64,000 nt of DNA from NCBI RefSeq assembly GCF_026626745.1, contig NZ_JAPNJW010000001.1:844311-908310 (forward strand), in the 5' to 3' direction. Position 1 is the first letter of the stretch, and each line of letters opens with the position of its first letter. Shown here one piece after another: positions 15,860 through 59,760 of this stretch. The position numbers were made by a program, and so were the translations under genes. The notes beneath the pieces were generated by a model. It searched no databases. It was not told where the DNA came from and saw only the letters and a program-made list of their open reading frames with translations. Origin of the DNA: Nannocystis sp. RBIL2 (lineage in GTDB: Bacteria > Myxococcota_A > Polyangia > Nannocystales > Nannocystaceae).

Positions 15860-15920
15860 GAGCAGTCCGGTCATAGGCCAGGCGCGGAGCGCTCGCAACG
15901 GTGATTGCCCGGAGTGCGAT

Positions 15921-18377
<2,457 letters not shown>

Positions 18378-38432: not shown

Positions 38433-39209
38433 TCAGCGCGTCTCCACCGCGACGCCGCGGACGAACAGGGCGGCGAGGACCAGCGCGTTGTCCCCGAACG
38501 TCAGCACGGACGGGTTCGTCCCCTCGACGAACGCAGTGCGCAGCAGGGCGAACGAGCCGAGCGCGGGCATGTCGAGCAGGGGCCGCAGATCGAGCGCCTG
38601 CGGATCGCCGTGCAGCCGGAGCGTGGCCAGCTCCGGCAGCGCGCGCAGCCAGGCGAGGTCGGCGACGTTCTCGGCGTGCCGCAGATCCAGCGTCTGCAGC
38701 CCGCGCGCCGCGGCCAGCGGGGAGAGGTCGACAGGCACGCGGCAGTCCAGCGACGCCGCGGTCAGGTGGGCGCAACGCGCCACGACCGCGAGGTCGGCCT
38801 GGCGGTGGACCTCGACGAACAGCTCCGCGAGCGCGGGCAAGCGATCGAGGCCGGACAGATCGGTGACGTCGAACTCGTCGCTCTCGCCGTCGAATTGCGG
38901 CCAGATCACGAACACGAGGTCCGCAGTCGGGTCCGTGGGCAACCGCGTCACCTTCGCCAGCATCGCCTCGTCGACCGGCGTGTCGTCGATGTACGCCGCG
39001 ATGTCCTCGTTGAAGCGATGGCCGTCTTCCGCCCACGCGTCGTACGGCTCGCCGCGGACCGCCGGGTAGGCCGCCTCGGCGGTGATCGGCTCGACCTCAC
39101 CGACGTCGATCAATTGCTGCAACACCATGAGGCGAAGGATCCGGTCGGGCATCCATTCGCGGAGCACGTTCGTCCCGGCGCGCCGGCCCGACTCGGATGG
39201 GGTCGTCAT
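38433..39209 (-). CDS. Hypothetical LRR-like protein (258 aa).
   Basis: ATG at 39209 (MTTPSESGRRAG). C-terminal repeats LQTLDLRHAENVADLAWLRALPELATLRLHGD. Its 5' end lies within the conserved element described below. Confidence 0.5.
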   Translation of the reverse strand: MTTPSESGRRAGTNVLREWMPDRILRLMVLQQLIDVGEVEPITAEAAYPAVRGEPYDAWAEDGHRFNEDIAAYIDDTPVDEAMLAKVTRLPTDPTADLVFVIWPQFDGESDEFDVTDLSGLDRLPALAELFVEVHRQADLAVVARCAHLTAASLDCRVPVDLSPLAAARGLQTLDLRHAENVADLAWLRALPELATLRLHGDPQALDLRPLLDMPALGSFALLRTAFVEGTNPSVLTFGDNALVLAALFVRGVAVETR

Positions 39210-39250
39210 CGCCGCGATATACCACGACGACCGGACCGAGCCGCGGCGCG
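39192..39250 (-). promoter_or_regulatory. Conserved 5' element, copy A: GGTCGTCGTGGTATATCGCGGCGATGACGACCCCATCCGAGTCGG. It has a TATAT box and an ATG encoding MTTPSES.
   Basis: About 45/50 nt are identical to copy B at 59682..59730, in the same orientation relative to the downstream gene. Confidence 0.5.
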
Positions 39251-39253
39251 GGC

Positions 39254-40237
39254 CTAGATCGCGCGCGAATACGACTTGCCGAGCTGCCGCAGGGCGTATT
39301 CGACGCTGGCCTGGAGCGTCCCGCAGGTCACGATGCCGGTCAGCGCATCGCCGAAAGACATCAGGTCCCGGGCGACCTCCGCACGCACGCCGCTCAGGAT
39401 CGGGAGCACGCCGAGCAGCCGCAGCGCCTGGGCGGTGCTGGTGAGGAGCGCGGCGCCGTGGACGTCGAGCGACGGGACGCCGGTGATGTCGATGATCGTG
39501 ACCCGCGCGGCGGACGACCCCTGCAGCGCCACCTCGAGGATCCGCGCGCGGCGGCTCTCGTCGAGCGTGCCGATCAGCGGCATGACCAGGATGTCGTCGG
39601 TGATCGGGATCAGCGGCGCGCTGCGCTCGGCCAGCGCGGCCTGCAGGCGATCGACGATCACCATGTTCTCGAGCAACAGCGCCGCGTTGCGCGAGAGGAT
39701 CTGGTAGATCCGCTGCTCCCGCGGGCCGAGCGGCACCTCGCAGCTCCACTGTATCGAGAACACGCCGACGACGCGGCCGCGCAGGGTCAACGCGATCATC
39801 AGCGCCGCCTTGATGCCGGCGGCCGCCCACATGTCGCGCAGGACCGGATCGATCCGCGGATCGGTCGCGGCAGATCCGACGAGCACCGGCACGCCCGGCT
39901 GCTCGAGCCAGACCCGTGAGAACGGCATGTCGGGGAGGTGGTAGCGGCCGCCGACGTGGGCCCGCGCCGGCCGCACCGCTGCTGGCCGGACCACCGCGAC
40001 CGAGAGCCACTCCGGCTTGTCGGCGGCGTCGTGCTCGACGGTGCAGAGCACCACCTCGGCCTCGTCGCGCCGCGGCGCCGCCAGGAGGAATGCCTGCAGC
40101 GTGGCTTCGCGGACCGTCGCCTCGTTCAGCTGCTCGGTCACTGCCAGGAGGACGGACCAATCATCCGCCAGCGCCGTCGCCGACGCGTCCTCGGGGCCAC
40201 TCGAACGCTCGTCCATGCTGGGGCCAGAATAACCCAT
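39254..40237 (-). CDS. GAF-domain / STAS-domain protein (RsbR-like anti-sigma-factor antagonist).
   Basis: The C-terminal STAS is ILVMPLIGTLDESRRARILEVALQGSSAARVTIIDITGVPSLD. A GAF-like region precedes it. Start at ATG 40237 or 40216. Confidence 0.65.
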   Translation of the reverse strand: MGYSGPSMDERSSGPEDASATALADDWSVLLAVTEQLNEATVREATLQAFLLAAPRRDEAEVVLCTVEHDAADKPEWLSVAVVRPAAVRPARAHVGGRYHLPDMPFSRVWLEQPGVPVLVGSAATDPRIDPVLRDMWAAAGIKAALMIALTLRGRVVGVFSIQWSCEVPLGPREQRIYQILSRNAALLLENMVIVDRLQAALAERSAPLIPITDDILVMPLIGTLDESRRARILEVALQGSSAARVTIIDITGVPSLDVHGAALLTSTAQALRLLGVLPILSGVRAEVARDLMSFGDALTGIVTCGTLQASVEYALRQLGKSYSRAI

Positions 40238-40466
40238 CGCCAGAAAATGTTTTCCTGAATGCGCCACAACGCGCAACGCGCTCGTCGGCCCCTGCAGGCG
40301 CCCTGCGAGCGGGATTGGTCGACATCGTTCCCTCGGCGCCGGGAGACGTCGGGCTCTGCGTCGGCCCGAAGACCACATTGCGCGCACGGCGCTTCCGAAG
40401 TAGGGAGAGCGTCGACTGCGCATACCCGACAGCCAGTGCGGGACTTCGGCGTGTGATCGCAGGCGC

Positions 40467-40820
40467 ATGGCGCTGCGCTCGCAGGAACACTCCACGCCCA
40501 TGCTCGGCGTGATGCTCGCCAGCTCGCTGCTGGTGATGCTCGTGCTCGGCGGATTGGCAGCCGCGGAGCGAAATTGGGTGTTCGGGACTCTCGCGGCCGT
40601 CGCGGCGATCGGCGCGGCCTCTCTGGCGAGGCTCAGGCTGCGACTCGCAGCGCGACGAACACGGGAGCCGCTCGAGTCGAGCGCCGGCACGGCCGCGCCC
40701 GCGAGCGCGCCGCGGGCCTTCGTGACCGAGGCCAGCCAATCGATCGGCGCGCGCGCCCGCGACGGAATCGTCGTCACGAGGTGCCGCCGGGCTGTGACCG
40801 ACATGTCACCGCATTCATGA
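40467..40820 (+). CDS. Possible small two-TM membrane protein.
   Basis: Hydrophobic helices MLGVMLASSLLVMLVLGGLAAA and VFGTLAAVAAIGAASLA. It lies in a 640-bp divergent intergenic region. Weak call. Confidence 0.2.
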   Translation: MALRSQEHSTPMLGVMLASSLLVMLVLGGLAAAERNWVFGTLAAVAAIGAASLARLRLRLAARRTREPLESSAGTAAPASAPRAFVTEASQSIGARARDGIVVTRCRRAVTDMSPHS

Positions 40821-40878
40821 TCGAGAATACCTAGGATGCCCGGCGCGGGCCTGTCCGGCCCGATGGTCGCGTCATCCC

Positions 40879-42591
40879 ATGCATCACACTCGCTGCATTC
40901 ATGTCCTGTCCCTCGTTGCGAGCGGCGCGCTCGCGTTCATGTCACACGGTTGCGAAGACGGCGACGACGATGCCGTGTTCGCGCGCGCCGGCGGGCCGGT
41001 GACCGTCAGCTTCCAGGACGGCCAGGCGCCGACCAGCAGCTACGCCGGCACTCGCGACACCATGCTCGACGGCGACTCGCCCACCGCCAAGAACGGCGCC
41101 GATACCAGCCTGTCGGTCGAGGCGGACACCGAGGTCCTGGCGCTGCTGTCGTGGGACCTGAGCGCCGCGATCCCGACCACCGCGGTCGTCGAGTCGGTCA
41201 GCATCACCCTCGAGATCTCCGACAAGAGCCCGGAGACGTTCTCGCTGTACGAGGCCAAGCGCGCGTGGAACGAGGCGAACGCGACCTGGAAGGTGTGGAA
41301 CACCGGCAGCAGCTGGCAGACGGCCGGCGGCTACGGCGTGAGTGACCGCGGGACCGCCGCGCTCGGCTCGTTCTCCGCGGCCGACACCGGCGCCGTCACC
41401 TTCTCCCTCAACGCCGCCGGCGTCGCGCTGGTGCAGCAGTGGGTGGCGAACCCGGGCAAGAACCGCGGCTTCTTCCTCGACGGTGCGGGTACCAGCAATC
41501 GGCTCGAGTTCCGCGCCAGCGAGTACGGCACCAAGGCCAAGCGGCCCAAGCTGAGCGTGACCTGGCACGAGGCCGAGGAGGGCGGCACCACCGGTGACGA
41601 CGGCGGCGAGGTCGTGCTCGACCCGACGCCCGGCAAATACAAGCAGAGCTGCGACGGTTCGTTCGGCGTCGCCCTCGACGGCGCCTACTTCCTCGACGGC
41701 AACGACGAAAACCAGGGCCTGCGAGTCTACCAGCGCGGCGCCGACGCCAACGCCGCCAAGACCTTCGACGTGTCCTCCAGCATCGGCCTGTCGAGCTCCG
41801 ACGAAGCGGACCTCGAGGACGCGGCGCGGATCGGCGACCGGATCTACGTCGTCAGCTCGCACGGGCGCGACAAGAGCGGCAAGCTCGAGCGGATGCGCTA
41901 CCGCTTCTTCGCCGTCGACGTCGCCGGGACCGCACCGAACGTGTCGCTGACGACCGTCGGCTATACCTCGAAGCTTCTCGACGACATGATCAAGAGCGCC
42001 AACTGGCTGACGCCGAACGCGAGCGTGATAGCGACGCTCAGCACCGCGGCCAACCTGAGCAAGTCCACCGACGCCAACCTCGCGCCCAAGGTGAACGGCG
42101 CCAACATCGAGGGCCTCGCCTGGCTGCCCACGGCACAGCGCCCCAAGCAGTTGGTGATCGGCTTCCGCAACCCGCTACAAGGCACCGACGCGATCCTGGT
42201 CACGCTGCTCAACGCCGACGCAGCGCTGAACGGCGCCGTCGCGCAGTTCGGCGAGGCGATCCTGCTCGACCTCGGCGGCCTGCGCGTGCGCGGGATGGCG
42301 TGGTCACCGGTTCACGCGGCGATGCTGATCCTCGGCGGGCCGAAGGACGGCACCGCGGGGCCGTACCGCCTCTACAAGTGGAGCGGCGTCGCCGACCAGG
42401 CGCCGGTGCTGGTCCAGAACATCACCTCGTTCCCGAGCGACTCGGGGCCGGAGAGCATCGTCGTCTACCCCGACACCCACGACGTGCAGATCGTCTTCGA
42501 CCAGGGCGAACACCTGATCAGCGGCACGATCTGCAAGGACAATTCGCTCTCCAGTCAGTACTTCAGCGACGTCGTCGTCCACGTCCCGTGA
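40879..42591 (+). CDS. Secreted DNRLRE-domain / DUF3616-domain protein.
   Basis: Signal peptide present. The N-terminal domain has GTSNRLEFRASEYG ... PKLSVTW, the DNRLRE-type motif. The C-terminal beta-rich domain resembles DUF3616. Both family calls are from memory. Confidence 0.6.
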   Translation: MHHTRCIHVLSLVASGALAFMSHGCEDGDDDAVFARAGGPVTVSFQDGQAPTSSYAGTRDTMLDGDSPTAKNGADTSLSVEADTEVLALLSWDLSAAIPTTAVVESVSITLEISDKSPETFSLYEAKRAWNEANATWKVWNTGSSWQTAGGYGVSDRGTAALGSFSAADTGAVTFSLNAAGVALVQQWVANPGKNRGFFLDGAGTSNRLEFRASEYGTKAKRPKLSVTWHEAEEGGTTGDDGGEVVLDPTPGKYKQSCDGSFGVALDGAYFLDGNDENQGLRVYQRGADANAAKTFDVSSSIGLSSSDEADLEDAARIGDRIYVVSSHGRDKSGKLERMRYRFFAVDVAGTAPNVSLTTVGYTSKLLDDMIKSANWLTPNASVIATLSTAANLSKSTDANLAPKVNGANIEGLAWLPTAQRPKQLVIGFRNPLQGTDAILVTLLNADAALNGAVAQFGEAILLDLGGLRVRGMAWSPVHAAMLILGGPKDGTAGPYRLYKWSGVADQAPVLVQNITSFPSDSGPESIVVYPDTHDVQIVFDQGEHLISGTICKDNSLSSQYFSDVVVHVP

Positions 42592-42617
42592 GTCGCCGAC
42601 GGTGCGAGGCTCTCGCC

Positions 42618-42639
42618 GGACGTCTATTCGTTGACGTCC
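42618..42639. terminator. Hairpin GGACGTC-N8-GACGTCC at the convergent junction of 40879..42591(+) and the cytochrome c gene(-).
   Basis: A 7-bp perfect inverted repeat that overlaps the cytochrome c stop. There is no U-tract, which is typical of high-GC genomes. Confidence 0.3.
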
Positions 42640-43130
42640 GACGAGACCCGGTCGCCGGTGTGATCGCCCTTGGCCGCGTCCTGCTTGTCGTCGGCCTTGT
42701 CGCCTTCCGAGTGGAGCAGGAAGGTGGACGCGTTCTGCGGGCCGACTGTCTCGTCGGCGTCGACCCCGTTGGCCTTGAGGTCGAAGGCGACGATTGCCCA
42801 GTACTCGCCCTCATTGAGGCTGCCGGGGTTGTCCTTGGGCATCTCTTTGCTGATGAAGTCGAACACGTCCTGCGCGTTGTTGAAGCGGGCCAGCGCCGCC
42901 TCGCCGACCACCGCGGGCACATCGTCCTTGCCCTTGCCGAGCGCGCCGTGGCACTTCGCGCAGTGTTTTTCGAACAGCGTGCCGCCGGCGATCTTCTGCT
43001 CGGCGGGGCCGGGCGCGACCTCGGGGTCGGCGGGGTCCTGGGAACCACGCTTGGCGCAGCCCGAGAACTGCACCGCCACGAGCGCGCCAGCCAGAGTGAG
43101 GAACATGTTTCGAGGGAGGAGCGAGCGCAT
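42624..43130 (-). CDS. c-type cytochrome lipoprotein (mono-haem).
   Basis: The N-terminus MRSLLPRNMFLTLAGALVAVQFSGC has lipobox FSGC. CAKCH is the haem-binding CxxCH motif. A Met ligand region is downstream. Confidence 0.7.
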   Translation of the reverse strand: MRSLLPRNMFLTLAGALVAVQFSGCAKRGSQDPADPEVAPGPAEQKIAGGTLFEKHCAKCHGALGKGKDDVPAVVGEAALARFNNAQDVFDFISKEMPKDNPGSLNEGEYWAIVAFDLKANGVDADETVGPQNASTFLLHSEGDKADDKQDAAKGDHTGDRVSSDVNE

Positions 43131-43425
43131 GATGACCTCGGAGGCCTCTTGGGACGGGCCCGCGGGCGCGGCAAGCGAGCGCGCGACGACTGAACTCTTT
43201 CGTCGACGCAAGACGCACGCGCATCTGCAGCACGGTGCCAAAAACGCTTGCGCGCAAGCTCCGCAGAGAAGCTGCCTGGGCGCTTGGTAAAATCCCTCGT
43301 TACCAGGAATGTCTCGAGCGTCCTTCGAGACAGGCACCGAGCTCAGGCTCGCGGACGCCCGGCCGAGCGACGGCCGACTCCAGTCCTACTGACAATGACA
43401 TCTCCGATGAACGGGACACGTTGCC

Positions 43426-43785
43426 ATGAATCGATGGCGCACACGCCCTGCCCTGCGCCGATTCGCGGGTCGATCGAGCGTCGACCTCGGCGCGGGCGAC
43501 ATGTTCGCCATCGACGCGGCGAAGGTCGTCGGCGACGACCTCGTGCTCGACGTCGGCTACTGCGGCGGGTGCACCATGCACGACTTCACCCTGTGCTTCG
43601 CCGGGATCGTGCTCGACACCGACATCCTGCTGGTGCGGGTCCACCACGACGCCATGGGCGACGCATGCGAGGCGTTCATCACGGAGCAGCGCGTCGTCGA
43701 CTTGACGCCCCTGCAGCAGCTCATGCCCTCGCCGGTCAAGCTCGAGCTCGACGGCTGGCCAGATCTGCTGCAGTACGTCTATTGA
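43426..43785 (+). CDS. Hypothetical protein (the start may instead be ATG 43501).
   Basis: From MFAIDAAKVVGDDLVLDVGYCGGCTMHDFTLCF onward the composition is protein-like. I recognise no domain. Confidence 0.3.
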   Translation: MNRWRTRPALRRFAGRSSVDLGAGDMFAIDAAKVVGDDLVLDVGYCGGCTMHDFTLCFAGIVLDTDILLVRVHHDAMGDACEAFITEQRVVDLTPLQQLMPSPVKLELDGWPDLLQYVY

Positions 43786-44038
43786 AGGCCGCCCCGGGTC
43801 GATATTCACAGTGCGAATCGCGACCCGGAGCGTACGAGGCCCCTGCTGAAGCGCCTCCGACCCTATCCGCGTCGGCGGGCCGATGATCCGCCCCGGCAGC
43901 AGGGCCCCTCCGGTCCGAGCGCCCCGCCCCAATTGAACAGAACGTCGTTCGCACGGAGTTCCGCCCGTTGATGCCATGCCGGCGCCCTGGTCCAGTCTGG
44001 TACAGTTCGAGGCGCTGTCCGAGAGACAGGAGGATGAC

Positions 44039-44698
44039 ATGGCCCACCGCTGCCCCACGTGCCAGGAACGCGAGCTCGACACCCTAGCCACCCTACCCTA
44101 TGTCCGCGGGTTTCTCATCGCATATCAGATCGGCACCAAGAAGTTCATCGGCTGCCGTTCGTGCGTGCGCAAGTCGATCTTCAAGGAGGTCGGCCTGTCC
44201 GCCGTGGTCGGTTGGTTCAGCATCACAGCGCTTGTGATAAACCCGTTCCTGCTGGTCTACGGGGTCTTCCGCGGCGCCGTCCTGAGCCCCGATCCGGCGG
44301 CCGTCCGCAAGGCGCTCGCGGAGGCCGGCATCCCGCCCGACGACGCCGGCTTGAGCATCGTGCACATCGCGTACGGCCTCGCCGCGGCGATGATCGCCGC
44401 CGACGGCAAGATCGAGCGCGACGAGGTGAGCACGGCGATCCGGATCGGCGCCAACCTGTTCGAAGACTTCGAGGCCGACGCGCTGCTGCGCCTGCTGCAG
44501 CGGCCGAAGGACCTCCCGGACCCGGTCGACCTGGCCGGCGTACTCGCGCAGGTCCTCGACGAGCCGCAGAAGCTGGCCGTCTACCGCTACCTCGAGGCCA
44601 TCGCCGGCGCCGACGGCGAGGTCTCCGCCGACGAAGCCGCGCTGCTGCAGCGCGTTCACTCCCGCCTCGCCCTCGACCCCCAGCTCGCCGCCGCCTGA
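44039..44698 (+). CDS. TerB-like (tellurite-resistance TerB / DjlA N-terminal fold) protein with an N-terminal zinc ribbon and a TM helix.
   Basis: RBS gacaggagga lies 8 nt upstream. CPTCQ ... CRSC form a zinc ribbon. The TM helix is AVVGWFSITALVINPFLLVYGV. The C-terminal helical pair has the TerB-type spacing (ADGKIERDEV ... ADGEVSADEAALL). Confidence 0.55.
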   Translation: MAHRCPTCQERELDTLATLPYVRGFLIAYQIGTKKFIGCRSCVRKSIFKEVGLSAVVGWFSITALVINPFLLVYGVFRGAVLSPDPAAVRKALAEAGIPPDDAGLSIVHIAYGLAAAMIAADGKIERDEVSTAIRIGANLFEDFEADALLRLLQRPKDLPDPVDLAGVLAQVLDEPQKLAVYRYLEAIAGADGEVSADEAALLQRVHSRLALDPQLAAA

Positions 44699-44707
44699 AT
44701 GCCCGCG

Positions 44708-44735
44708 GGACCTGGCGTCGAATCGACGCCAGGTC
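44708..44735. terminator. GC-rich perfect hairpin GACCTGGCGTCG-AAT-CGACGCCAGGTC, 10 bp after the TerB-like stop.
   Basis: A 12-bp perfect stem with a 3-nt loop, in a convergent junction. Confidence 0.45.
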
Positions 44736-44806
44736 GTCGTCGGCGACCGCTCCACCGCTCGAACGCACGCTCGTTGTCGTGCTTTCGGTGGGGACAGGCC
44801 GGCGAT

Positions 44807-46669
44807 CTAGAGGGCACGCAGCGCGCGCAGCAACCCGGGGCCCATGACCAGTTCGCCGCGGGCGAGCCCTTGCTCGGTCTCGCCGCAGGACATCAGAAAG
44901 TCGTCGAGCGCCTCGCCGATGTCGGCTTCGACGAGCTTCTGCATGTCGAGCGCCCGGACCAGGTTGGGCTGGGCGGCGAGCGCTCCGCGGAGCCGGGCGA
45001 GGTCGAAGCCGAACAGCATGAACGCCTCGGGGTCGCGGGCTCGCAGCGACTTGAACCGCGGCTCGTCGCCGAGCCGGTGCTCGCCGCCTCGCGCCGCGAA
45101 CACCCGCCGCAGCACCGCCTCCTCGGCGCCGGGGGCGACGACGAAGTAGGCGTAGCCGTCGCGCTCGACGCGGTCGATGGCGACCCCCTCACGCGCGATC
45201 GAGGCGAGCGCCGGATCGATCGCTGCGATCTCGGCGAGCGCCCGGGCATGGACCGCGCGAATGGTCCAGCGATCGACCTCGGCGCCGTCGAGGCTCCATG
45301 CACCCGGGACGAACGACCACGCGAAGCTCTTCGCCAGGTCGCTGCGGAGCACCCCTGACTGCATGTTCTCGGTCCAGGCGAGCCACGACGCGCGGCCCGA
45401 CTGCCCGGGCGCGAGGCGCCGGATGCCGACCACGGTCAAGGGTGTGCCCGGATGATCGAGCATCGCCCACGCGGCCGAGCCGCTGTACAGCGCGCGATCC
45501 TCGAGGAAGTGACGGTTCAGCGCGACCTCGGCCGCGCTGGCCGAGCTGTCGTTGACGGCCGCCCACAGCGCGGCGAGGCTGGCGATCGCGTTGCGCACGT
45601 CGTCCTCGGTGATCGGCCCCGAGGTGTAGCGATTGATGCCGACGGTCGCCCACGGGTCGATGTCGTAGGCCACCAGCGCCACCACCTCACGCGGCAGACC
45701 GGCGAGGAGCTCCGGATCGAGGCTGCGCCCGCGCGTCAGGCTGTCCGCCGGGAAGCGACCGCCGACCCGCGGGATCAGCTGCGCGCCGAGAGAGAGCCGG
45801 CCGCGGTCGAGATCGACGAACCCGGTCACCTGCACGTATTCGCCGAACTTCTGCATCGCCGCGCGGTCGTTGCGACGCTCGGCCTCGATCCGCATCTCCC
45901 ACAGGCGGCGCTCGGACTCGCTGGTGGCGTTCAGCAGGCCGGTGGCCAGCTTGTCTTCGGGGACGTCGGCGAGCGCCAGGAGCGTGTCGCCATGGCGCGC
46001 GTACAGGTGCTCGGAGAACACCACGAACTCGAGGTCGCTGCGGACCGCGTCGGCGCGCCCGACCAGCGCCGACTCGATGTATTCGTCGACCTCCGCGAAG
46101 AAGCCGGTCTCGACGCTCAAGACGACGTCGCCGCCGATCGCGTCGATGAACACGGGGTAGCCACCGACCTCGAACTCGGCGACGTGACCGCTCGCGCCGG
46201 CCTGGCGGGCCCCGACGTCGGTCGTGAACTGGAGGGCCCCGCCGCGGTAACCCAGCGAGCAGGCCACCCGCGGCGCGGGCGAAAGCTCGCCGACGACGCA
46301 GCCGAACGGTCGCTCGAGATCGGCATGTTCGGCCAGAGCCGGCGGCAGCCCGGTCGACAGCACGACGAACCCGAGCAGCCCGGCCGGCGTCGCCAGGCCG
46401 CTCATGCGCGGCGGCAGCACCTGCTCGCCGAGCTCCGCGAGCCACGCCGCGGGTCGCGGGAGGAGCAGGTGGCCGAAGACCGGCGCTTCGCGGCGATCGA
46501 TCGCGGTCGCCGGGAATGTGCGCGCGGGGCTCTCGATCCACGGCGCTTCGACGGGCCCGGCCGTAGCGGCCGGATTCGGCGCGTCGGCGACGTCCGCGGG
46601 ACGCTCGGGATCGGCGCCGCCGCAGGCGCACACGAGGAGACCGCAGAGCGAGGAGCGAAGCTTGCGCAT
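44807..46669 (-). CDS. Large lipoprotein of unknown function.
   Basis: ATG at 46669 (MRKLRSSLCGLLVCACGG, lipobox LVCAC). About 620 aa of protein-like sequence. Confidence 0.55.
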   Translation of the reverse strand: MRKLRSSLCGLLVCACGGADPERPADVADAPNPAATAGPVEAPWIESPARTFPATAIDRREAPVFGHLLLPRPAAWLAELGEQVLPPRMSGLATPAGLLGFVVLSTGLPPALAEHADLERPFGCVVGELSPAPRVACSLGYRGGALQFTTDVGARQAGASGHVAEFEVGGYPVFIDAIGGDVVLSVETGFFAEVDEYIESALVGRADAVRSDLEFVVFSEHLYARHGDTLLALADVPEDKLATGLLNATSESERRLWEMRIEAERRNDRAAMQKFGEYVQVTGFVDLDRGRLSLGAQLIPRVGGRFPADSLTRGRSLDPELLAGLPREVVALVAYDIDPWATVGINRYTSGPITEDDVRNAIASLAALWAAVNDSSASAAEVALNRHFLEDRALYSGSAAWAMLDHPGTPLTVVGIRRLAPGQSGRASWLAWTENMQSGVLRSDLAKSFAWSFVPGAWSLDGAEVDRWTIRAVHARALAEIAAIDPALASIAREGVAIDRVERDGYAYFVVAPGAEEAVLRRVFAARGGEHRLGDEPRFKSLRARDPEAFMLFGFDLARLRGALAAQPNLVRALDMQKLVEADIGEALDDFLMSCGETEQGLARGELVMGPGLLRALRAL

Positions 46670-46774
46670 CACCCCTCGAAGGTACCCGTTCGCGCGGCCG
46701 ATGGCGGCCGCCAAAACATCGTGCTCCGGTTCGACGCGGCCCGGCCGGAGCTGGCGCGGGCCAGCGGCGGTTGC

Positions 46775-48274: not shown

Positions 48275-48684
48275 GGCATCTCGACCAGGGTCCAGTACTT
48301 GTTGAGCGTCGCCATCAGGTCGATGAAGTTGCCGAACGTGACCGGCTTGAGCAGGTAGCCGGCGACGTTGAGCTTGAACGCGTCGATCTTGTCGCGCTCC
48401 TCGTTCGAGGTCGTCAGCACCACGACCGCCGTGGTCTGCAGCGCCGAGTCGGCGCGGAGGGCCCTCAGGAACTCGATGCCGTTCATCTTCGGCATGTTGA
48501 TGTCGAGCAGCACCAGCCGGCGCGGTCCGAGCGAGCCGTCGCGCAGCTTCTCCAGCGCCTCGAGCCCGTTGTTGGCGACGTGGATCGGGTTGGTCAGCCG
48601 GTTGCGCTGGAAGGCGCGCTTGACGGTCAGGACGTCGACCTCGTCGTCATCGACCAGAAGGATGTGCAGCTCGCGGTTGTCCAT
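48271..48684 (-). CDS. Single-domain CheY-like response regulator.
   Basis: HILLVDDDEVDVLTVKRAF ... LVLLDINMPKMNG ... VVLTTS. The start overlaps the downstream kinase by 4 nt. Confidence 0.85.
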   Translation of the reverse strand: MDNRELHILLVDDDEVDVLTVKRAFQRNRLTNPIHVANNGLEALEKLRDGSLGPRRLVLLDINMPKMNGIEFLRALRADSALQTTAVVVLTTSNEERDKIDAFKLNVAGYLLKPVTFGNFIDLMATLNKYWTLVEMP

Positions 48685-48772
48685 CAGGGCTCGTGTCAGG
48701 GCCGTCTCTGGCGGGATGAAGAGTCAGCTTCGACGCGACTGGCGAAGAAAGCAAGGCGCGCCGGGCCCGCTC

Positions 48773-52135: not shown

Positions 52136-52848
52136 GGTTCTCCCATTACCTCACCGAAGTCCGACTGAGAAGGACCGCGCCGATCACGAAGCCGAGGTAC
52201 GCCCGGGATGACAATCCTTGCGCAGACTCACCGGCCAATGGGCCCTTCAGGTCGCGTGAATCGAATCGCCGCCTCGAGGCGAGCGGCCCACGACTTTGGC
52301 GCGCAATTTCCGCCCTCCCGCAGGGCTTGTGAAGGCATTACGGGCTCCGAACGGAGCGATAGACGGACACCGGAGATGTCAACCCGGGAGGCATGGCGAC
52401 GAGGCCGCCACGCGCAACCGCGGGCACCGGGCGAGGCTACCGCCGGCCTCTGCAATAGCACGACGGCAGATCGTGGTGGGCCCGAGGTCCCGCGGCAGCG
52501 GCCAGCGGATCGCGTCGACGCTGCGCACCCGCGATCCCTTCCGTCCCGTGCGGCCTGACGGTCGGGTCGTGGATGTGCTCGGACCCGATTTTTTCGAACT
52601 CGAGCGACGGGCGCGGCGAGCAGGCACAGCAGGCACAGCAAGCCCACGCTGCGGGTCGCGCAACGGTTCTCCGTCGAACTCACCGCGGATCGCAAGGCAA
52701 CGACGACATCGATTTCGCTGGACATCCTGGGGCCAGAAAGGCACCTCTCACCGGCGAGCCAGTGGAAGCAGCACGCACGCCCGGCTCGGTCCATACATTT
52801 GCACGGTCCCTACAATCGTTTCGTTCTGTCGCTGACGGAGACGGCGTC

Positions 52849-54186
52849 ATGAGCGCGCCTGGAAGAGTCAACATTCTCCTCGTGGACGACCAGCCGGCCC
52901 GGCTGCTCAGCTACGAGACCATCCTCGCACCGCTCGCGCAGAACCTGGTGCGCGCCACCTCGGGCGCCGAAGCGCTGCAGAGGGTCCTGCGCGAGGAATT
53001 CGCCGTCATCCTCCTGGACGTCAGCATGCCGGAGATGGACGGCTTCGAGACCGCGGCGCTGATCCACCAGCACCCGCGCTTCGAGCGGACGCCGATCATC
53101 TTCGTCACCGGCCACGACATGACCGAGCTCGACGCCCTCCGCGGCTACGAGCTCGGCGCGGTCGACTACGTCTACGTCCCGATCGTCCCCGAGATCCTGC
53201 GCGGCAAGGTCTCGGTGCTGGTCGAGCTGTGCCTCAATCGCCAGGAGCTGGTGCGGGCCAACCGCGAGCTCGAGCAGGCCAACGCCCTGCTCGCGCTCAC
53301 CAACACGACCCTGCAGGCCGAGAAGGCCCGCGAGCTCGAGCAGCTCAACGCGGTGCTCGAGCAGGCCAACGCCGGCCTGGCCGAGGCCAACCGCACCCTC
53401 GCCGGAGAGGTCACCGAGCGCCAGCGGGCCGAGGAGGCGCTGCGACGCACGCACGCGCAGCTGCGGCAGGCCGACCGCCAGAAGGACGAGTTCCTGGCCA
53501 TGCTGGCGCATGAGCTGCGCAACCCGCTGGCGCCGATCCACAGCGCAGTCGAGCTGATGGGCCTCAAGGAGCTCGCCGATCCCCAGGTGGGCTGGTGTCG
53601 CGACATGATCGATCGCCAGGCCAGGCAGCTGCACCGCGTCGTCGACGACCTGCTCGACGTCTCGCGGCTCGTCCAGGACAAGCTCACGCTGCAGAGCGCT
53701 CCGCTCGACGTCGCCGTGGTCGTCGGCCTGGCGCTCGAGACGACCCGGTCGCGGATCGAGGCGCGGCGCCATCAACTCCGCCTCACGCTGCCGGAGGAGC
53801 CGATCTGGATCGAAGGCGACCGCACGCGCCTGAGCCAGGTCGTCGGGAACCTGCTCGACAACGCCGCCAAGTACACGCCCGAGGGCGGGCAGATCCGCCT
53901 CACCGTCGAGCTCGCCGCAAGCGAGGCGCGGGTGCTGATCCGCGTCGCCGACTCGGGCACCGGGATCCCTGGTGAGGTGTTGCCGAAGGTCTTCGAGCTG
54001 TTCACGCAGGCCGATCGCACCTTCCACCAGGCCCAAGGCGGTCTCGGCATCGGCCTGGCGCTGGTCCGTCGCCTGGTCGAGCTGCACGGCGGCTCCGTCA
54101 CCGCGCACAGCGACGGTCCGGGCAGGGGCAGCGAGTTCATCGTCAGGCTCCCGCGGCTCCTCCGGGAAGCGGCGCCGCGTCGCTGA
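52849..54186 (+). CDS. Hybrid REC - coiled-coil - histidine kinase, divergent from the 1120-aa kinase.
   Basis: ATG at 52849 (MSAPGRVNILLVDDQPARL). A long Q/A/L coiled coil. The H-box AHELRNPLA. HATPase motifs. Confidence 0.85.
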   Translation: MSAPGRVNILLVDDQPARLLSYETILAPLAQNLVRATSGAEALQRVLREEFAVILLDVSMPEMDGFETAALIHQHPRFERTPIIFVTGHDMTELDALRGYELGAVDYVYVPIVPEILRGKVSVLVELCLNRQELVRANRELEQANALLALTNTTLQAEKARELEQLNAVLEQANAGLAEANRTLAGEVTERQRAEEALRRTHAQLRQADRQKDEFLAMLAHELRNPLAPIHSAVELMGLKELADPQVGWCRDMIDRQARQLHRVVDDLLDVSRLVQDKLTLQSAPLDVAVVVGLALETTRSRIEARRHQLRLTLPEEPIWIEGDRTRLSQVVGNLLDNAAKYTPEGGQIRLTVELAASEARVLIRVADSGTGIPGEVLPKVFELFTQADRTFHQAQGGLGIGLALVRRLVELHGGSVTAHSDGPGRGSEFIVRLPRLLREAAPRR

Positions 54187-54189
54187 CTC

Positions 54190-55287
54190 CTACGGCTCGA
54201 CGTACGCGAGCTGAAGGATCCACCCGTTCACTGTGTTCATGAGCTGATGCGGATCGTAGGAGCAAGTCGGCGAGGTCCAGCCGCAATTTCCATCGCCCAC
54301 GACGTCCGCGACCTGGTCGTCCTGACTGAACGTCACACTGCCGAATGCGTTGAAGCCCAGGGTGCAGAACGGTGAGGCGATCTTGAACGGCGTGCCCGTC
54401 AGGTCGACGTTGGCGACGCCCGGCTCCGCCACATGCCCGCAGCCCTCCGCGACCCCGTACGGCATCGACGTCACCAGTTCTTGGCCGTGGTAGAGCCCGC
54501 CGCTCGAGCTGGCGAAGGTGAGGTCGTCGATGTCGACGGCCAGCGTGGTCGGCTCGATACGCACCCGCGTGAAGGCGGTCCGCACCGAGGCGTCGCCGGC
54601 GTATTGCGCGAAGTTACGCCCCTCCCCGACCGCCACCAGCGACAGGTATGTCCGCGGCTCGCCGGCCATGTCATGGCAGTACGCGGTCCACGGCCGGTCC
54701 GGGTCGAGGTCGACGTGCAGCGTGTAATCGCCGTCGAGCGCCGACGGATCCTCGAGCGCGATGTCGGCGCAGCTCGTCGCCTCGCAGTGGCTCGCCGCGT
54801 CGCAATCGTTGTCGACGCCGTCGCACGCCTCGGGGCTGCCCGGGGACACGGCGTCGTCCGCGTCGTCGCAGTCGTCGCCGTTGTCGCTCGCCCCCTCGGG
54901 GAGGGTGCACGCATTCGTCGGAGGCGCGCTCGCGTCGCCGAACCCGTCGCCGTCGTCGTCGGGCCAGTAGGTGACCGCGGGGACGGCCCCGCCGCCCTCG
55001 CACGCGGCGAAGCAGGCGTTCGCGTAGCTCTCGCCGTCCGCGCCGCAGGCCGGCTCAGCGCCGCCGAGGATGCAGAGGATACACAGCAGCCCCGCCTGGG
55101 GATCGGGGGCCGTGTCCTGCAACCATTCCGGGTCGCCCAGCTCGCCCGGTTCCAGGGCCTCCGCGGCCTCCTCGTCCACGTCGTCGTCCGCGGCCGCGGC
55201 CGCCGGCGACGCGGGGTCCTCCAAAACATCGCATGCGAGACCTATCCAGGGGGTGACAATCAGCAGGGTGCGAGACAGGGCATTCAT
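54190..55287 (-). CDS. Secreted lipoprotein with a Kazal-like domain, a myxobacterial Cys-rich Asp/Gly metal-binding-type repeat and a C-terminal GON-like domain.
   Basis: Lipobox IGLAC. EPACGADGESYANACFAAC follows the Kazal consensus (C-G-x-D-G-x-x-Y-x-N-x-C). DDDGDGFGD ... CDGVDNDCD are Cys-rich metal-binding-type repeats. The GON assignment is tentative. Confidence 0.6.
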   Translation of the reverse strand: MNALSRTLLIVTPWIGLACDVLEDPASPAAAAADDDVDEEAAEALEPGELGDPEWLQDTAPDPQAGLLCILCILGGAEPACGADGESYANACFAACEGGGAVPAVTYWPDDDGDGFGDASAPPTNACTLPEGASDNGDDCDDADDAVSPGSPEACDGVDNDCDAASHCEATSCADIALEDPSALDGDYTLHVDLDPDRPWTAYCHDMAGEPRTYLSLVAVGEGRNFAQYAGDASVRTAFTRVRIEPTTLAVDIDDLTFASSSGGLYHGQELVTSMPYGVAEGCGHVAEPGVANVDLTGTPFKIASPFCTLGFNAFGSVTFSQDDQVADVVGDGNCGWTSPTCSYDPHQLMNTVNGWILQLAYVEP

Positions 55288-55529
55288 GACGTGATGAATC
55301 CATTGCGTGAATCACCGGACCGACATCGTCGGCGGCCCGGCGGGGCGACGCTGCATTCGGCGTCCAGACCGAATCACCCTACCCGCTCCCCGCGGTCCGC
55401 GAATTTCTCGGGAATTTCACGCCGACGTGCGACCCGGACGGTCACGCCCGCATCGCGTCGTCCGGGGCGTCGCGAATGCGCGGCCTCGTCCGCGAGGGAC
55501 GAGCACGAGGTCGCGCTCGGCGGGCGCCG

Positions 55530-55997
55530 CTACCCGGTCGTGGCGTCGGTGGTCGACTCCGAGCCCGTGCCCGTCGTCGGTGCCGTCGTGCCCGTGGCGT
55601 CCGTCGTCGTCGTCGCGTCCGTCGTCGTCGCGTCCGTCGTCGTCGCGTCCGTCGTCGTCGCGGCCGTCTGGGTCACCTCCGTGCCCTCCGAATCGGTGTC
55701 GGGCCCGCCGTATGCGGGCTGGCCGGTGGTGCAGGCGGCGACCACGAGAGCGGCAGCCAGCGCGGCCAACGAGCCGGTGCGCTCCGCGCGGGACCGCGAC
55801 ACCCCGCAATGGGGACAGACCGGATCGGCGGCACGTACCAGTTCGTCGCATCCGGGGCAGGAGAACAGTTGAGTCTCGGGGACCAAAGCCACACGCGATC
55901 TTTCGCCCACTCCGTGGACCGTGTCAACGCGCGCGATTGCGAGCCATCTCAACTCGGCGGCCGCGTGGGATAGCGCGACCGCGCGACATGACATCAC
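55530..55997 (-). CDS. Hypothetical zinc-ribbon / TM / Thr-rich repeat protein.
   Basis: CPGCDELVRAADPVCPHCG is a zinc ribbon. The TM helix is LAALAAALVVAAC. Four DATTT repeats are encoded by 15-bp tandem repeats at about 55590-55670. Confidence 0.35.
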   Translation of the reverse strand: MMSCRAVALSHAAAELRWLAIARVDTVHGVGERSRVALVPETQLFSCPGCDELVRAADPVCPHCGVSRSRAERTGSLAALAAALVVAACTTGQPAYGGPDTDSEGTEVTQTAATTTDATTTDATTTDATTTTDATGTTAPTTGTGSESTTDATTG

Positions 55998-56006
55998 ACT
56001 GCGGCC

Positions 56007-56708
56007 TTACCAGCCGACCTTCGCGCGCACGAATTCGGCGAGTTCTGCCGCCATCGCCTCGTGCTGCGCGGCGCTCGGGTGCGTGCCGCAGCCATCGCCG
56101 ATGAGCTTCGTCGTGTAGAAGGCGTGCACCTTCGTGTCGCCGCCGGTCGCGAACTCGGCCTCGACCTCGGCGAGCGCGGTCTTCTGGTCGGTGAGGAACT
56201 GGTCGGCCGGGGTCGGCCAGCCGTCGCCGAGCATCAGACTCGACGCGAGGATGATGTGCGCCTCGGGGTAATCGCCGCGCAGCTCGGCGACGAACTCGAC
56301 GTAGGCGGCGGCGAACTCGGCCTCGGTCATCCGCGGGCGTTCGGAGTCGCCGAGCGAGAAGTCGTTGGTGCCGAGCGCGACGACGACGACGTCCGGGACG
56401 AACCCCTGCGGCTCCCACGACGGCGAGCCCTGCTGCAGCTCGAGAAACATCAGGTCGTAGACCGCGGGCATCGGCCTCGCGTCGTACAGGAACGAGTAGT
56501 TGCGGACGAGGCCGATACCGGACACCGCAGTGACATGGTATTCCGCGTCGAGGCTGCGCGCCGCGACCGCGCCGTAGGACCGCCAATTGTTATGATAAGG
56601 CTGGCCCCACCCGCCCGGGTTGCCGTAGGAGTCCGCCGAGCACTCCGGCGAGTTATTCGCGGCCTCGTTGCCGGAGCCGACGGTGATCGAGTCGCCGATG
56701 AATGCCAT
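56007..56708 (-). CDS. SGNH/GDSL hydrolase, apparently 5'-truncated (no signal peptide; it begins at the GDS block).
   Basis: MAFIGDSITVGSG is GDSL block I at residue 3. GTNDF is block III. A DxxH region near the C-terminus. Upstream it abuts the methyltransferase-like fragment. Confidence 0.55.
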   Translation of the reverse strand: MAFIGDSITVGSGNEAANNSPECSADSYGNPGGWGQPYHNNWRSYGAVAARSLDAEYHVTAVSGIGLVRNYSFLYDARPMPAVYDLMFLELQQGSPSWEPQGFVPDVVVVALGTNDFSLGDSERPRMTEAEFAAAYVEFVAELRGDYPEAHIILASSLMLGDGWPTPADQFLTDQKTALAEVEAEFATGGDTKVHAFYTTKLIGDGCGTHPSAAQHEAMAAELAEFVRAKVGW

Positions 56709-56956
56709 GCGCCGCGGCGCGGCGCGGCACCTACGTCGACGCGGTGGCGCGCTGGCTCGTGTCGGGCGGACTGCTGCTGCTCAAGACCTTCAGCAAGCTG
56801 CAGCCCGGCGACAGCGGACCGCACCGGTTCTCGCCCGACGAGATCCGCACGACCTTCGCGTCGCGCTTCGAGCTGCTGTCGGCGACCGAGACCGAGTACC
56901 AGGGCACGCTCGACCCGCTGCCGAAAGCGCTGTTCAGCGTGTTGCGGCGCCGCTGA
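56702..56956 (+). pseudogene. C-terminal remnant of a class I SAM-dependent methyltransferase-like gene.
   Basis: The product GTYVDAVARWLVSGGLLLLKTFSKLQPGDSGPHRFSPDEIRTTFASRFELLSATETEYQGTLDPL resembles a methyltransferase C-terminal segment. There is no N-terminal half and no plausible start context. Family call from memory. Confidence 0.3.
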
Positions 56957-57022
56957 GCGCGCCGACGGCCCGGGGCGACGCGGGCCGTGTCCGCCATCCC
57001 CGGCCGATGTCAGGCGACGCGA

Positions 57023-58291
57023 TCAGGCGAGGTGGGACTTGCCTGCATTGAAGTCGTTCTGCAGCGCCGACGCGATCGCGCTCTGGAGGGTCCCCTTGGT
57101 GATGATGCTGCCCAGGTCGAGCCCGAGACCGACGAGCGTCTGCGCCAGGGACGGCCGGATTCCGGTCAGGATCGTCTTCGCACCGAGCAGCTGCAGCCCC
57201 TTGGCCGTGTCGAGCAGCGCGCGCGCGACGCGGGTGTCGAGGTCGCGCAGCCCCGTCACATCGAGGATGACCACCTGCACGTGGGTCGACTGGACGCCTT
57301 CGAGCGCGACAGTCATCACCTGATGGATCCGGTCCGTGTCCATCTGGCCCACGAGCGGCATGACCACGATCCGCTCGGTGATCGGGATGAACGGCGTCGA
57401 CATCGCCTCCATCGTGTCGCGCAGCCGCTCGAGCGTCCGCTCGTACTCGCCGAGCAGATCCTTGTATGGCGTGACGTCATGGGCCGTGCCGTACACGAGC
57501 CGGGTCGACTCGTCCTCGTTCGGGTCCATGTACGCGGTCCAGGCGAGCCACTTGTAGGTGCCGTCCTTGCACTGATAGCGGTTGTCGAAGCGGATGGTCA
57601 TCTTGCCTTCGAACAGGGCCGCGGCCTCGGCGGTCGTCGCCGCTCGGTCGTCGGGGTGGACGAACTCGATGAACGGCCTCGCCGTCATCTCCTCGGGGCT
57701 CCAGCCGAGGAGATGCCGCCACGCCGGGTTGGCGTGGCGGAAGTAGCCGTTCGAGTCCAGGGTGACGAGGAGGCCCACCGAGACCCGGAACAACTTCTCG
57801 TAGACCTTGGCGTCCTGCAGCGTGGGCTCGAGCTGCGACTGCCGCTCCCGGTCGCCCGTCACGTCGATTCCCGTCGCATAGATGAGCTGCTCCGACGGCT
57901 CGTCCCCTGCGTCCACCCGCGCGGCCCAGCCGAGCCACTTGTACGAGCCGTCTTTACACAGATAGCGGTTGTCGAACCGGTCGACGGTGTTGCCCTGGAG
58001 AAGGCCGGCCACCTCGGCGAGCGTCACCTCGCGGTCGCTCGGATGGACGAACTCGATGAACGGCTTGCTCCTCAGCTCGTCGAGGGACCAGCCGAGGATC
58101 CGCTCCCATGTCGGATTGAGGGCGCGGAAGTGGCCGTTCGCGTCCACAGTGGCCAGAAGCCCTGCATAGGCCTGGAACATCTTCTCGTAACTCAGCACCG
58201 AATCCTCCCTTGCGCGGCCGTGACTGCGAGCGCTCGCTGCGGGGCCGCCCGTCGACGAATCCCCGTACGCATATGCGGAAGAGCCTCCCAC
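57023..58291 (-). CDS. Tandem-PAS / STAS-domain sensor (RsbR-like).
   Basis: Two PAS repeats (each ...FIEFVHP.DR...RFDNRY.CKDG.YKWL.W.A...). The C-terminal STAS is FIPITERIVVMPLVGQMDTDRIHQVMTVALEGVQSTHVQVVILDVTG. Confidence 0.7.
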   Translation of the reverse strand: MGGSSAYAYGDSSTGGPAASARSHGRAREDSVLSYEKMFQAYAGLLATVDANGHFRALNPTWERILGWSLDELRSKPFIEFVHPSDREVTLAEVAGLLQGNTVDRFDNRYLCKDGSYKWLGWAARVDAGDEPSEQLIYATGIDVTGDRERQSQLEPTLQDAKVYEKLFRVSVGLLVTLDSNGYFRHANPAWRHLLGWSPEEMTARPFIEFVHPDDRAATTAEAAALFEGKMTIRFDNRYQCKDGTYKWLAWTAYMDPNEDESTRLVYGTAHDVTPYKDLLGEYERTLERLRDTMEAMSTPFIPITERIVVMPLVGQMDTDRIHQVMTVALEGVQSTHVQVVILDVTGLRDLDTRVARALLDTAKGLQLLGAKTILTGIRPSLAQTLVGLGLDLGSIITKGTLQSAIASALQNDFNAGKSHLA

Positions 58292-59045
58292 GCCAATGAC
58301 GCAGGAGCGAACAGCGCCCGCCTCATAGCAAGCTCGGCCCTCCGATCATCGCAGACACTTGTCCACGAGACGCGGCTATATGTCAAGAGCACCGGACGGC
58401 GGCGGCGGCGCCGCCGCCGTGCGGTGTACGTGTTCGCCGCCGATCGGAACCACCGCCCTCCCACTGTTGCCAACGGCGATAACGCGAGCACGTTCGCGCC
58501 CGAGCGCGGACGGCGATAGGGTCTGCGATTGTTCACTGGGCGCAAAACCGGGCCCTCGTCGCCGATCCACGAGTGACGACTGGCACGATTTCTACGGACC
58601 ATCCTAGTGAATCGAAAGGGTCGGTCCGACGCCAGGGCGAATCGTGATTCGAGCTTCAGGTCGCCGATTCGCCGTGGACGAACCGCCGCCGCAGCACGGC
58701 GGCCATCTCTCGCGAGCGACGATCACTGCGGCGCCGTCGGAGCGCAGGTGGAAACACAGGCGCCGACGATGCTGATCGACGCATCGGCGACGACGATTTG
58801 ATATCCTGCTGGCCGTTCCCGTCGCTGTCGTCGTATCTGGGGGGTCGAGCCCGGCCACGCGGAGGTTGCATGACGAAGCTCACTGTCCGCCCGCCGTCCG
58901 CGCGCGACTCGGCAGACTCGCGGCGCCACGGCGTCCCGTCCCCGATCAGCCGCGAGGCCCGCCCCTGCGCAAGTGCATGGCATGCGATGCTACCCTGAAG
59001 CGGCGCGACCAGATTCTCGCCAAGGGTCGATGTCGAGGAGTGACG

Positions 59046-59462
59046 ATGAGCCAGGCATTGAACGAGTTCCTGATCAGGCTCTACGGCTTCGCCGACAAGC
59101 GAGACAAGACGGTCCAGTTCGACCGCGCGATCGCCCTCGATTGCCTCCGGAGCGACTTCGACGCGTCGATCCATTGCAGCTTCTTCGTGAACGTATTCGA
59201 TGAGAACATGCTCGTGCTGTCCTACGCGGGCAATCATCCGCGGAACGCCAGGGTGGATAGCTTGGGGGCGCCCTTCCTGCAGCGGTTTCGCCTCGCCAGA
59301 GAAACGCCAAACGCATTGCGGGAGCTGGCAGCGGCATACAAGCAGATTCGCCCTCCGGCGGGCGAGAAGAGCTGGCTCGTCTCGCGCAAGGAAGTGGCCG
59401 CACAGCTCGAGCAGCTGGCGCAGAGTCTCGAAGAGTTCCTGAGGTCCGGACCTGTGAATTGA
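59046..59462 (+). CDS. Hypothetical protein (138 aa).
   Basis: ATG at 59046 (MSQALNEFLIRLYGFADKRDK...). Protein-like composition. The upstream part of the track ORF is noise. Confidence 0.35.
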   Translation: MSQALNEFLIRLYGFADKRDKTVQFDRAIALDCLRSDFDASIHCSFFVNVFDENMLVLSYAGNHPRNARVDSLGAPFLQRFRLARETPNALRELAAAYKQIRPPAGEKSWLVSRKEVAAQLEQLAQSLEEFLRSGPVN

Positions 59463-59681
59463 GCGCGCGAGCAGCCCGACACCGAACGTCGCCGCGGTGC
59501 TGTTCTCGCCGAAGTCCTCGCGGCCGGCGGCGTGGTCATCGTCTCGAACGAGTGGAGCTGCTACGCGGAGCGCGAGAACCTCCAGCGCGGCGCTCACCGG
59601 CCTCGACAGCGAGCTGTCGTGCATGGACGCCCTCGCCGCCGACGCCCCAGGTCTCGTACCCTCGCGGCCTCACCGGGTCTT

Positions 59682-59730
59682 CGTGGTATATCCCGGCAAT
59701 GACGACCCCATCCGATTCGGCCGGCGCGTC
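59682..59730 (+). promoter_or_regulatory. Conserved 5' element, copy B: GGTCTTCGTGGTATATCCCGGCAATGACGACCCCATCCGATTCGG. Its ATG at 59707 opens a 21-codon leader (MTTPSDSAGASRRTCSAREFP) whose TGA overlaps the yceI-like ATG as ATGA.
   Basis: Aligns with copy A (39192..39250, minus strand) at about 45/50 identity. A single-base difference after TCGG shifts the frame relative to copy A. Confidence 0.5.
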
Positions 59731-59760
59731 GCGACGAACTTGCTCCGCGAGGGAATTCCC

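Follow-up and report, generated by a model that had tools for sequence, protein, structure and literature searches.

The DNA analysed here, referred to throughout as the window, is a stretch of 64,000 nucleotides (nt) from Nannocystis sp. RBIL2 (assembly GCF_026626745.1, contig NZ_JAPNJW010000001.1, positions 844,311 to 908,310 of the forward strand), in which a short element occurs twice, in opposite orientations, at the 5' ends of two different genes. Copy A (39157..39232, minus strand) comprises a promoter-like core (-23..-1) and codons 1-18 of a gene of the DUF6892 family (38433..39209, minus strand; start ATG 39209, 258 amino acids (aa); Pfam E 5e-18). Copy B (59676..59750, plus strand) consists of the same promoter-like core followed by a decaying 5' coding stub, and lies just upstream of a YceI-family gene (59761..60315, plus strand; start ATG 59761, 184 aa). 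A piece of ~76-98 bp, containing the probable promoter and the first 18 codons of one Nannocystis gene, has thus been copied once in front of an unrelated YceI gene. A preceding model-made annotation of these letters, here called the sequence-only reading, had recognised the second gene as yceI-like, in agreement with Pfam (34 bits against a cut-off of 23.7), but had called the first product LRR-like (leucine-rich repeat-like); the Pfam family of that protein is DUF6892, and its LRR_4 match is sub-threshold only.

BLASTN aligns copy A (39232-39157) with copy B (59676-59750) over 76 columns at 89.5% identity (E 4e-22), with a single 1-bp gap where GGG in copy A faces GG at 59719-59720 in copy B. 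With position 0 set at the A of the ATG, the two copies agree at 20/23 positions in -23..-1 and at 21/22 in 0..21; past the gap, 27 of 30 positions are identical (A 23-52 versus B 22-51), and beyond this segment the identity is at background (9/28). In the upstream direction, 8 of 22 positions match ungapped between -45 and -24, and weaker homology may reach 39245 in copy A and 59663 in copy B. No perfect match between the copies exceeds 17 nt. The longest inverted repeat of the window is 39188-39245 / 59663-59720 (58 nt, 83% ungapped), and a pattern search with the 35-nt core TCGTGGTATATCnCGGCnATGACGACCCCATCCGA finds exactly two sites in the window, as against none in 100 shuffles. The 3' limit of the homology, ...CTCCGCGA, corresponds to codon 18 of the DUF6892 gene and to 59750 in copy B. 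Copy A accordingly spans -23..+53 of ATG 39209 and copy B -85..-11 of the YceI ATG, their start codons being 39209-39207 (minus strand) and 59699-59701 (plus strand), respectively. The repeat noticed in the sequence-only reading therefore withstands base-by-base comparison with a proper aligner. The strings quoted for it were correct, but they had been placed ~9-13 nt from their actual positions, 39237-39179 (minus strand) and 59673-59728 (plus strand), and the homology continues ~25 nt further in the 3' direction than was recognised there.

The element, including its start codon, stands before two genes whose products are unrelated (BLASTP E 2.4; Pfam DUF6892 versus YceI). The upstream neighbours are equally non-homologous, namely a GAF-STAS gene, which ends 44 nt before the ATG of copy A, and an orphan open reading frame (ORF) before copy B. 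When 58541-59762 was compared with the window by blastn and tblastx, nothing near copy A was matched except the element itself. The GAF-STAS gene and a PAS-PAS-STAS gene are paralogues (59 nt at 76%, 39560-39618 versus 57338-57396). A segmental duplication that included the STAS genes was considered and rejected, as their orientation relative to the element differs, the PAS-STAS paralogue lying 1.4 kb from copy B on the opposite strand.

Copy A is orthologous in four loci held as DNA, those of N. pusilla Na p29 (L001), N. pusilla GCA_049337375.1 (L012), N. punicea (L009) and a metagenome contig (L011), in all of which the ATG is kept and the protein starts MTT.... Codons 1-9 of the DUF6892 gene vary at the protein level among these four, and codons 10-22 (RAGTNVLREWMPD) show synonymous changes only, four of them in L011. 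Because the changes there are confined to synonymous ones, codons 10-22 must be translated; a homologue available as protein only (P0125) has A->P at codon 11. ATG 39209 is the only in-frame start upstream of these codons and, judged by their conservation, is the real start of the gene. It has no Shine-Dalgarno motif upstream. Beyond about -30 on the upstream side, N. punicea and L011 have unrelated DNA. A separate observation concerns N. exedens, whose DUF6892 orthologue (L010 2760-3060) is missing the first ~50 codons together with the copy-A element; unrelated sequence makes up its 5' region, and the annotated protein begins at the equivalent of residue 51.

The sequence before this start codon reads as TG-G-TATATC, an extended -10-like box (39216..39224, minus strand), with TATATC at -12..-7 and TG at -15/-14 from the A of ATG 39209. 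The orthologues carry TATATC, TATAAC, TAGATC or TACATT at this position, the N. pusilla group having C as the last base (-7) of the hexamer. The spacing to the ATG is N6 for TATATC in both copies and also for TATAAC and TAGATC, and N7 for TACATT. The sequence-only reading had set the box 9 bp before the ATG, a distance that needs correcting: 6 nt separate TATATC from the ATG, and the gap after TGGTATAT is 7 nt. On the metagenome contig L011, the gene upstream is divergent, so that the promoter has to be located within the 130-nt spacer, whose only TAnnnT is TACATT, 7 nt before the ATG.

In leaderless genes of high-GC bacteria, the -10 box ends ~6-7 nt upstream of the AUG, which forms the 5' end of the transcript. 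Copy A is similar to these in having an AUG, no Shine-Dalgarno motif, and a -10-like hexamer at -12..-7 with its TG, kept across orthologues, but it differs in the C at -7 of the N. pusilla hexamer and in the lack of a recognisable -35. The geometry of copy A is that expected of a leaderless mRNA, and such an mRNA is what we infer. The earlier suggestion of a leaderless or near-leaderless promoter module thus fits as far as geometry is concerned, whereas promoter activity would have to be accepted against a strict sigma-70 scan that calls nothing. Only the extended -10-type reading (TGnTATATC) fits either copy. Other readings of the region were tried and discarded: a sigma-54 reading of TGGTAT-N-GGC has a GG/GC spacing that is 1 nt short by eye, and its start would fall inside the conserved coding region; the left arm of a candidate operator palindrome, GGTCGTC-N18-GACGACC, varies across orthologues without compensation, while its right arm is fixed by the Met-Thr-Thr codons; and the CCGGCGCGCCGG palindrome of copy A is broken in copy B.

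Directly downstream of the DUF6892 gene lies a gene for a MarR-family regulator (37857..38354, minus strand; Pfam MarR_2 E 6.7e-9), together with a glyoxalase-type gene. The order DUF6892-MarR-glyoxalase is found again in L012, and N. punicea (L009) has DUF6892-MarR with an unannotated 122-aa gene. The MarR protein is a candidate regulator of the shared promoter.

At the YceI locus, the A-derived DNA meets its surroundings at 59750|59751, 10 nt before the YceI ATG. The 10 nt in question are the native ribosome-binding region of YceI (GGGAATTCCC; 59751..59760, plus strand), and it is at 59750/59751 that homology to L002, L003 and L004 begins. The window comes from a Nannocystis of the N. pusilla group and is ~90% identical to N. 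pusilla Na p29 over long stretches. Na p29 (L002), N. bainbridge, Nannocystis sp. SCPEA4 and the Logan contig SRR33471270 have a different region upstream of YceI, which can be aligned among these four and whose homology to the window likewise starts at 59750/59751. Copy B is absent upstream of YceI in L002, L004, L006 and L008. Since four relatives keep a different, mutually related upstream region, the direction of copying can be read as A to B, and by this comparison copy B is the derived one.

Copy B was found in three lineages only: the window, N. pusilla GCA_049060185.1 (L007) and the JGI soil metagenome contig Ga0645954_0096627 (L013). All three carriers have the B-specific substitutions GTCtTCG, TCcCGG and GGCaATG in common, and for this reason the three copies are taken to be orthologous and to stem from one event. 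The box of copy B (TG-G-TATATC, 59684..59692, plus strand; TATATC at 59687-59692, then 6 nt, then ATG 59699) is identical in the three. These lineages differ by ~6% at four-fold sites, and copy B has diverged by ~10% from copy A. The presence of copy B in all three implies that the duplication predates their split, which does not agree with the recent duplication proposed in the sequence-only reading.

The DNA preceding copy B (58541..59675, plus strand) is lineage-specific and, together with copy B, replaces 7.2 kb of N. pusilla Na p29, such that 58541-59750 of the window stands where Na p29 has L002 2785-9990. It holds the orphan ORF (~59046-59462, plus strand), which encodes 138 aa from MSQALNEF... 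at ~60-65% GC, compared with 71% for the window. Only two homologues of this ORF were found among 5.8 billion proteins, both beside copy B (in L007 and L013), and it has no match to a Pfam family.

What has become of the copied coding sequence can be followed among the carriers. The 1-bp deletion relative to copy A turns the DUF6892 N-terminus into an upstream ORF (uORF) of 21 codons (MTTPSDSAGASRRTCSAREFP; 59699..59764, plus strand), whose TGA overlaps the YceI ATG (59761) as ATGA, just as the sequence-only reading had described. The deletion is real and inherited, because the independent contig L013 has the same one, at the same 62-nt offset. Of the differences from copy A past the gap, 5/6 are non-synonymous. 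Compared with L013, the window is identical at 67/71 positions in the core (-45..+25), at 25/36 in the stub (+26..+61) and at 531/552 in the YceI coding sequence, and the contrast between core and stub is significant (Fisher p = 9e-4). The stub is 31% substituted, with 11/36 positions differing between window 59725-59760 and L013 1159-1194 (an interval that takes in the YceI ribosome-binding region besides the 3' half of the stub) and no indel, which is ~5x the four-fold divergence of the adjacent gene; the changes form multi-nucleotide patches, for instance ACGAACT versus CCCCTCG. In L007, 34 nt of the stub are deleted, and a strong AAGGAGG precedes the YceI ATG. On this comparison the coding stub is not constrained, and it is its accelerated change that stands out. 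It may be added that in L007 the YceI gene itself (10001-10570) is frameshifted after about residue 103 (P0035, 189 aa), reflecting either a pseudogene or an assembly indel, so that this genome carries both the YceI frameshift and the 34-nt leader-stub deletion.

The position of the uORF raises the question as to whether its translation matters for YceI. A functional leader peptide would require that a leaderless uORF be translated and that the ATGA couple YceI to it by termination-reinitiation, in line with the coupling suggested in the sequence-only reading, an arrangement that does not exclude the explanation favoured below. The ATGA and the 62-nt offset are indeed kept in the window and L013 despite 11 substitutions, without any indel in +26..+61. 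To this extent the arrangement resembles AUGA translational coupling. Several observations speak against a functional role: in L007 the 34-nt deletion sets the uORF out of register, leaving it to run out of frame more than 76 codons into YceI and destroying the ATGA arrangement; the peptides of the window and L013 have just 12/21 residues in common, the C-terminal half not being conserved; the TGA follows necessarily from the native 'ATG A..' of YceI; and YceI has a Shine-Dalgarno-like motif of its own, which is kept in every lineage. We regard a functional leader peptide, and a regulatory role of the uORF in general, as improbable. The uORF with its ATGA overlap looks like a by-product of the frameshift and of the native 'ATG A' of YceI.

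It could also be asked whether the frameshift conceals an in-frame fusion, as a missed G giving GGG at 59719-59720 would produce an N-terminally extended YceI (MTTPSDSGRRVATNLLREGIP-MNTQ...). The gap does sit in a run of G, and the A-derived frame after it runs straight into the YceI ATG. Yet the deletion recurs in L013, L007 is out of frame through a different lesion, and YceI homologues, the closest included, begin at this ATG, all of which makes a hidden fusion exceedingly unlikely, and the sequencing-error explanation is largely refuted by L013. Chimeric 5' ends are known to arise by partial gene duplication or by promoter capture after rearrangement, and PMC3488235 cites examples. The present case is like these in that the DUF6892 donor keeps its own copy, while YceI loses its native upstream region and gains a probable foreign promoter with a 5' gene fragment; it differs in that YceI has no fusion protein, as each of the three copy-B lineages has a frameshift in the stub.

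The YceI gene as such is intact and under purifying selection, its mismatches between the window and L013 falling 5/3/13 over the three codon positions. Its homologues number 292, and those listed measure 158-193 aa and start at the equivalent of ATG 59761. The Shine-Dalgarno-like motif is GAGGGA at 59748-59753. An intact and constrained gene whose native upstream region has been displaced needs a promoter, and the explanation that we consider probable is that a one-off partial duplication amounted to promoter capture by YceI, an ordinary two-copy case.

Several results weigh against a promoter at copy B. The strict sigma-70 scan (TTGACA-N16-18-TATAAT, requiring at least 9/12 matches and also A as the second and T as the sixth base of the -10 hexamer) calls no site at either copy, there being no recognisable -35 and a C rather than a T at -7. 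The core of copy B shows 94% identity in the comparison of the window with L013, a level that does not exceed the conservation of the four-fold sites of YceI (~6% divergence), and for that reason no purifying selection is claimed for it; as a selected phylogenetic footprint it was set aside, since it is conspicuous beside its flanks but not in comparison with four-fold sites. A 39-nt run identical with L007 is compatible with chance (estimated P ~0.3). No terminator was found in 59300-59900, so that read-through from the orphan ORF could transcribe YceI. Finally, TAnnnT-N5-8-start arrangements number ~5 in the window versus ~3 expected (an estimate), and leaderless usage in this genome is not established. 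TAnnnT-N7-ATG occurs at plausible gene starts at 35894-35909 (plus strand), 21561 (minus strand) and 22012 (minus strand), and one of these, TAGCCT-N7-ATG, opens MRSLLMLLANASALSLACGP, a lipoprotein-like signal peptide; there is a hint here that leaderless-type starts may not be rare in this genome, although the count is not above chance.

These results would suit a neutral relic, in which copy B is a dead 5' fragment of DUF6892 left by rearrangement of the locus and YceI is transcribed from further upstream, for example with the orphan ORF. The ordinary conservation of the core, the silence of the consensus scan, the missing terminator between the orphan ORF and YceI, and an upstream locus that differs in every lineage examined all agree with it. 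Against this, the fragment holds the whole region carrying the DUF6892 promoter, provided that this mRNA is leaderless; it is oriented towards YceI and directly adjoins the YceI ribosome-binding site; and TG-n-TATATC-N6-ATG is identical in three lineages in which both flanks are rearranged, deleted or 31% substituted. A neutral relic therefore seems unlikely, though less so than a functional leader peptide.

The sequence-only reading had also raised a mobile promoter cassette, and two copies before unrelated genes, with a perfect 9-bp inverted repeat (59659-59667 / 59745-59753) bracketing copy B, could suggest a cassette or an element akin to a miniature inverted-repeat transposable element (MITE) that is spreading through the genome. 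There are, however, just two copies in 64 kb, and nhmmer finds none further in 190 kb of window and related loci. A scan of 185,579 representative genomes (GTDB) with a strict 21-base core pattern, which misses diverged copies, gave one match, the copy A orthologue of N. pusilla Na p29; the same pattern scan of metagenomes gave 0 matches, weak evidence of absence given that L013 matches the pattern exactly and yet went unreported. The 9-bp repeat is at chance level (an estimated ~0.7 expected), is not conserved in L013 or L007, and was accordingly rejected as a terminal inverted repeat; the 8-bp repeat around copy A is different from it. Moreover, the unit includes coding sequence of a conserved protein. 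With two copies, and with flanking repeats of 8-9 bp that are unlike each other and unconserved in L007 and L013, the terminal inverted repeats, target-site duplication and multiple copies that mark MITEs and insertion sequences are not seen here, and a mobile cassette is very unlikely.

As the copies are mutually inverted and both lie at gene 5' ends, two other functions were weighed as well: a cis-regulatory RNA common to both (riboswitch or attenuator), and a recombination site that inverts the 20.4-kb segment between them. Rfam at its gathering threshold reports no RNA family anywhere in the window, and folding of three leaders gave nothing significant or common; they fold no better than shuffled sequences (z = -0.08, +1.60, -1.21) and differ between the copies. 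Inversion is contradicted by the sampled relatives, which keep the local arrangement beside both copies (orphan ORF-B-YceI in L007 and L013; STAS-A-DUF6892 in L001 and L012), and for either function the longest perfect match is short. Both ideas are highly improbable, and the inversion was rejected.

The closest published counterpart that we considered is the putative mobile promoter (PMP), defined by Matus-Garcia et al. (2012), in their work on promoter propagation in prokaryotes, as sequences of 50-100 nt with at least 80% identity by the translation starts of non-homologous genes of one genome (PMC3488235). Families of two or three copies were thought in that work to result probably from random duplication or recombination and not from transposition, and doublets average ~92% identity (PMC3488235). 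Copies A and B resemble a PMP doublet in length and identity (76 nt, 89.5%), in lying within the promoter window around a translation start, and in the non-homology of both their downstream and their upstream neighbouring coding sequences. They differ in that approximately 2/3 of the unit is former coding sequence of the donor (codons 1-18), and is hence not purely non-coding, and in that donor, direction, junction and later decay can be reconstructed from relatives.

Some further features of the YceI surroundings deserve mention. Upstream of YceI, where the window has 1.2 kb, the 7.2 kb of Na p29 encode an M4 peptidase, OmdA, a nitroreductase and others, and the DNA in this place is different in every Nannocystis lineage examined. 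In N. bainbridge, YceI adjoins a histidine-kinase gene that is located 41 kb away in the window (window 14701-18473 versus L004 5779-9531). The YceI-BlaR1-BlaI block seems to mark the stable border of a region prone to rearrangement. Within the BlaR1/M56-like gene (60478-62679, minus strand), seven tandem 21-nt units at 60592-60801 encode a heptad-like repeat of RARERAE type, and a (TPP)n linker is found in the same product; further tandem repeats in coding sequence are present at 5823-6112 (45-nt period) and 55605-55682 (15-nt period).

Promoter capture, the reading we favour, can be set out as follows. The copied unit runs from about -23 (possibly -45) to +52 of the DUF6892 gene, so that it takes in 18 codons, with their start codon, behind the promoter-like core. 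It was joined 10 nt upstream of the YceI start in a forebear of some members of the N. pusilla group, displacing the native upstream region. The comparisons above show the duplication, the A-to-B direction, the age relative to three lineages, the junction and the decay of the stub; promoter activity, leaderless transcription and any effect of the uORF are inferred. At the home locus, the extended -10 promoter most likely starts transcription at the A of the ATG or beside it, yielding a leaderless DUF6892 mRNA, and at YceI the same core most likely drives transcription from ~59699. The former coding stub would then serve as a 5' leader of 62 nt on which decay has no bearing, YceI would be translated from its own Shine-Dalgarno-like GAGGGA and ATG 59761, and the 21-codon uORF with its ATGA would be a by-product of the inherited 1-bp deletion.

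A bolder version, which we hold to be improbable, is that ribosomes are recruited to the leaderless AUG at 59699 with no need of a Shine-Dalgarno motif and that the uORF hands them to the overlapping YceI start (AUGA), which would make for a new coupling device; the rapid, indel-free turnover of +26..+61 may in that case represent tuning of the leader, and co-regulation of YceI by the MarR protein of the donor operon would be a further possibility at the same low level of expectation.

Under promoter capture, the favoured explanation, there is no sign of mobility and no new mechanism is implied, the two-copy promoter duplication being otherwise ordinary. Its interest lies in offering a natural example of a bacterial gene gaining a new promoter, in which comparison with relatives reveals which gene was the donor, which way the copy went, exactly where it was joined and three independent states that the stub later reached. 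If the donor mRNA is truly leaderless, it would also illustrate how a leaderless start codon, once moved in front of another gene, ends up as the start of a short uORF with which a new 5' leader begins.

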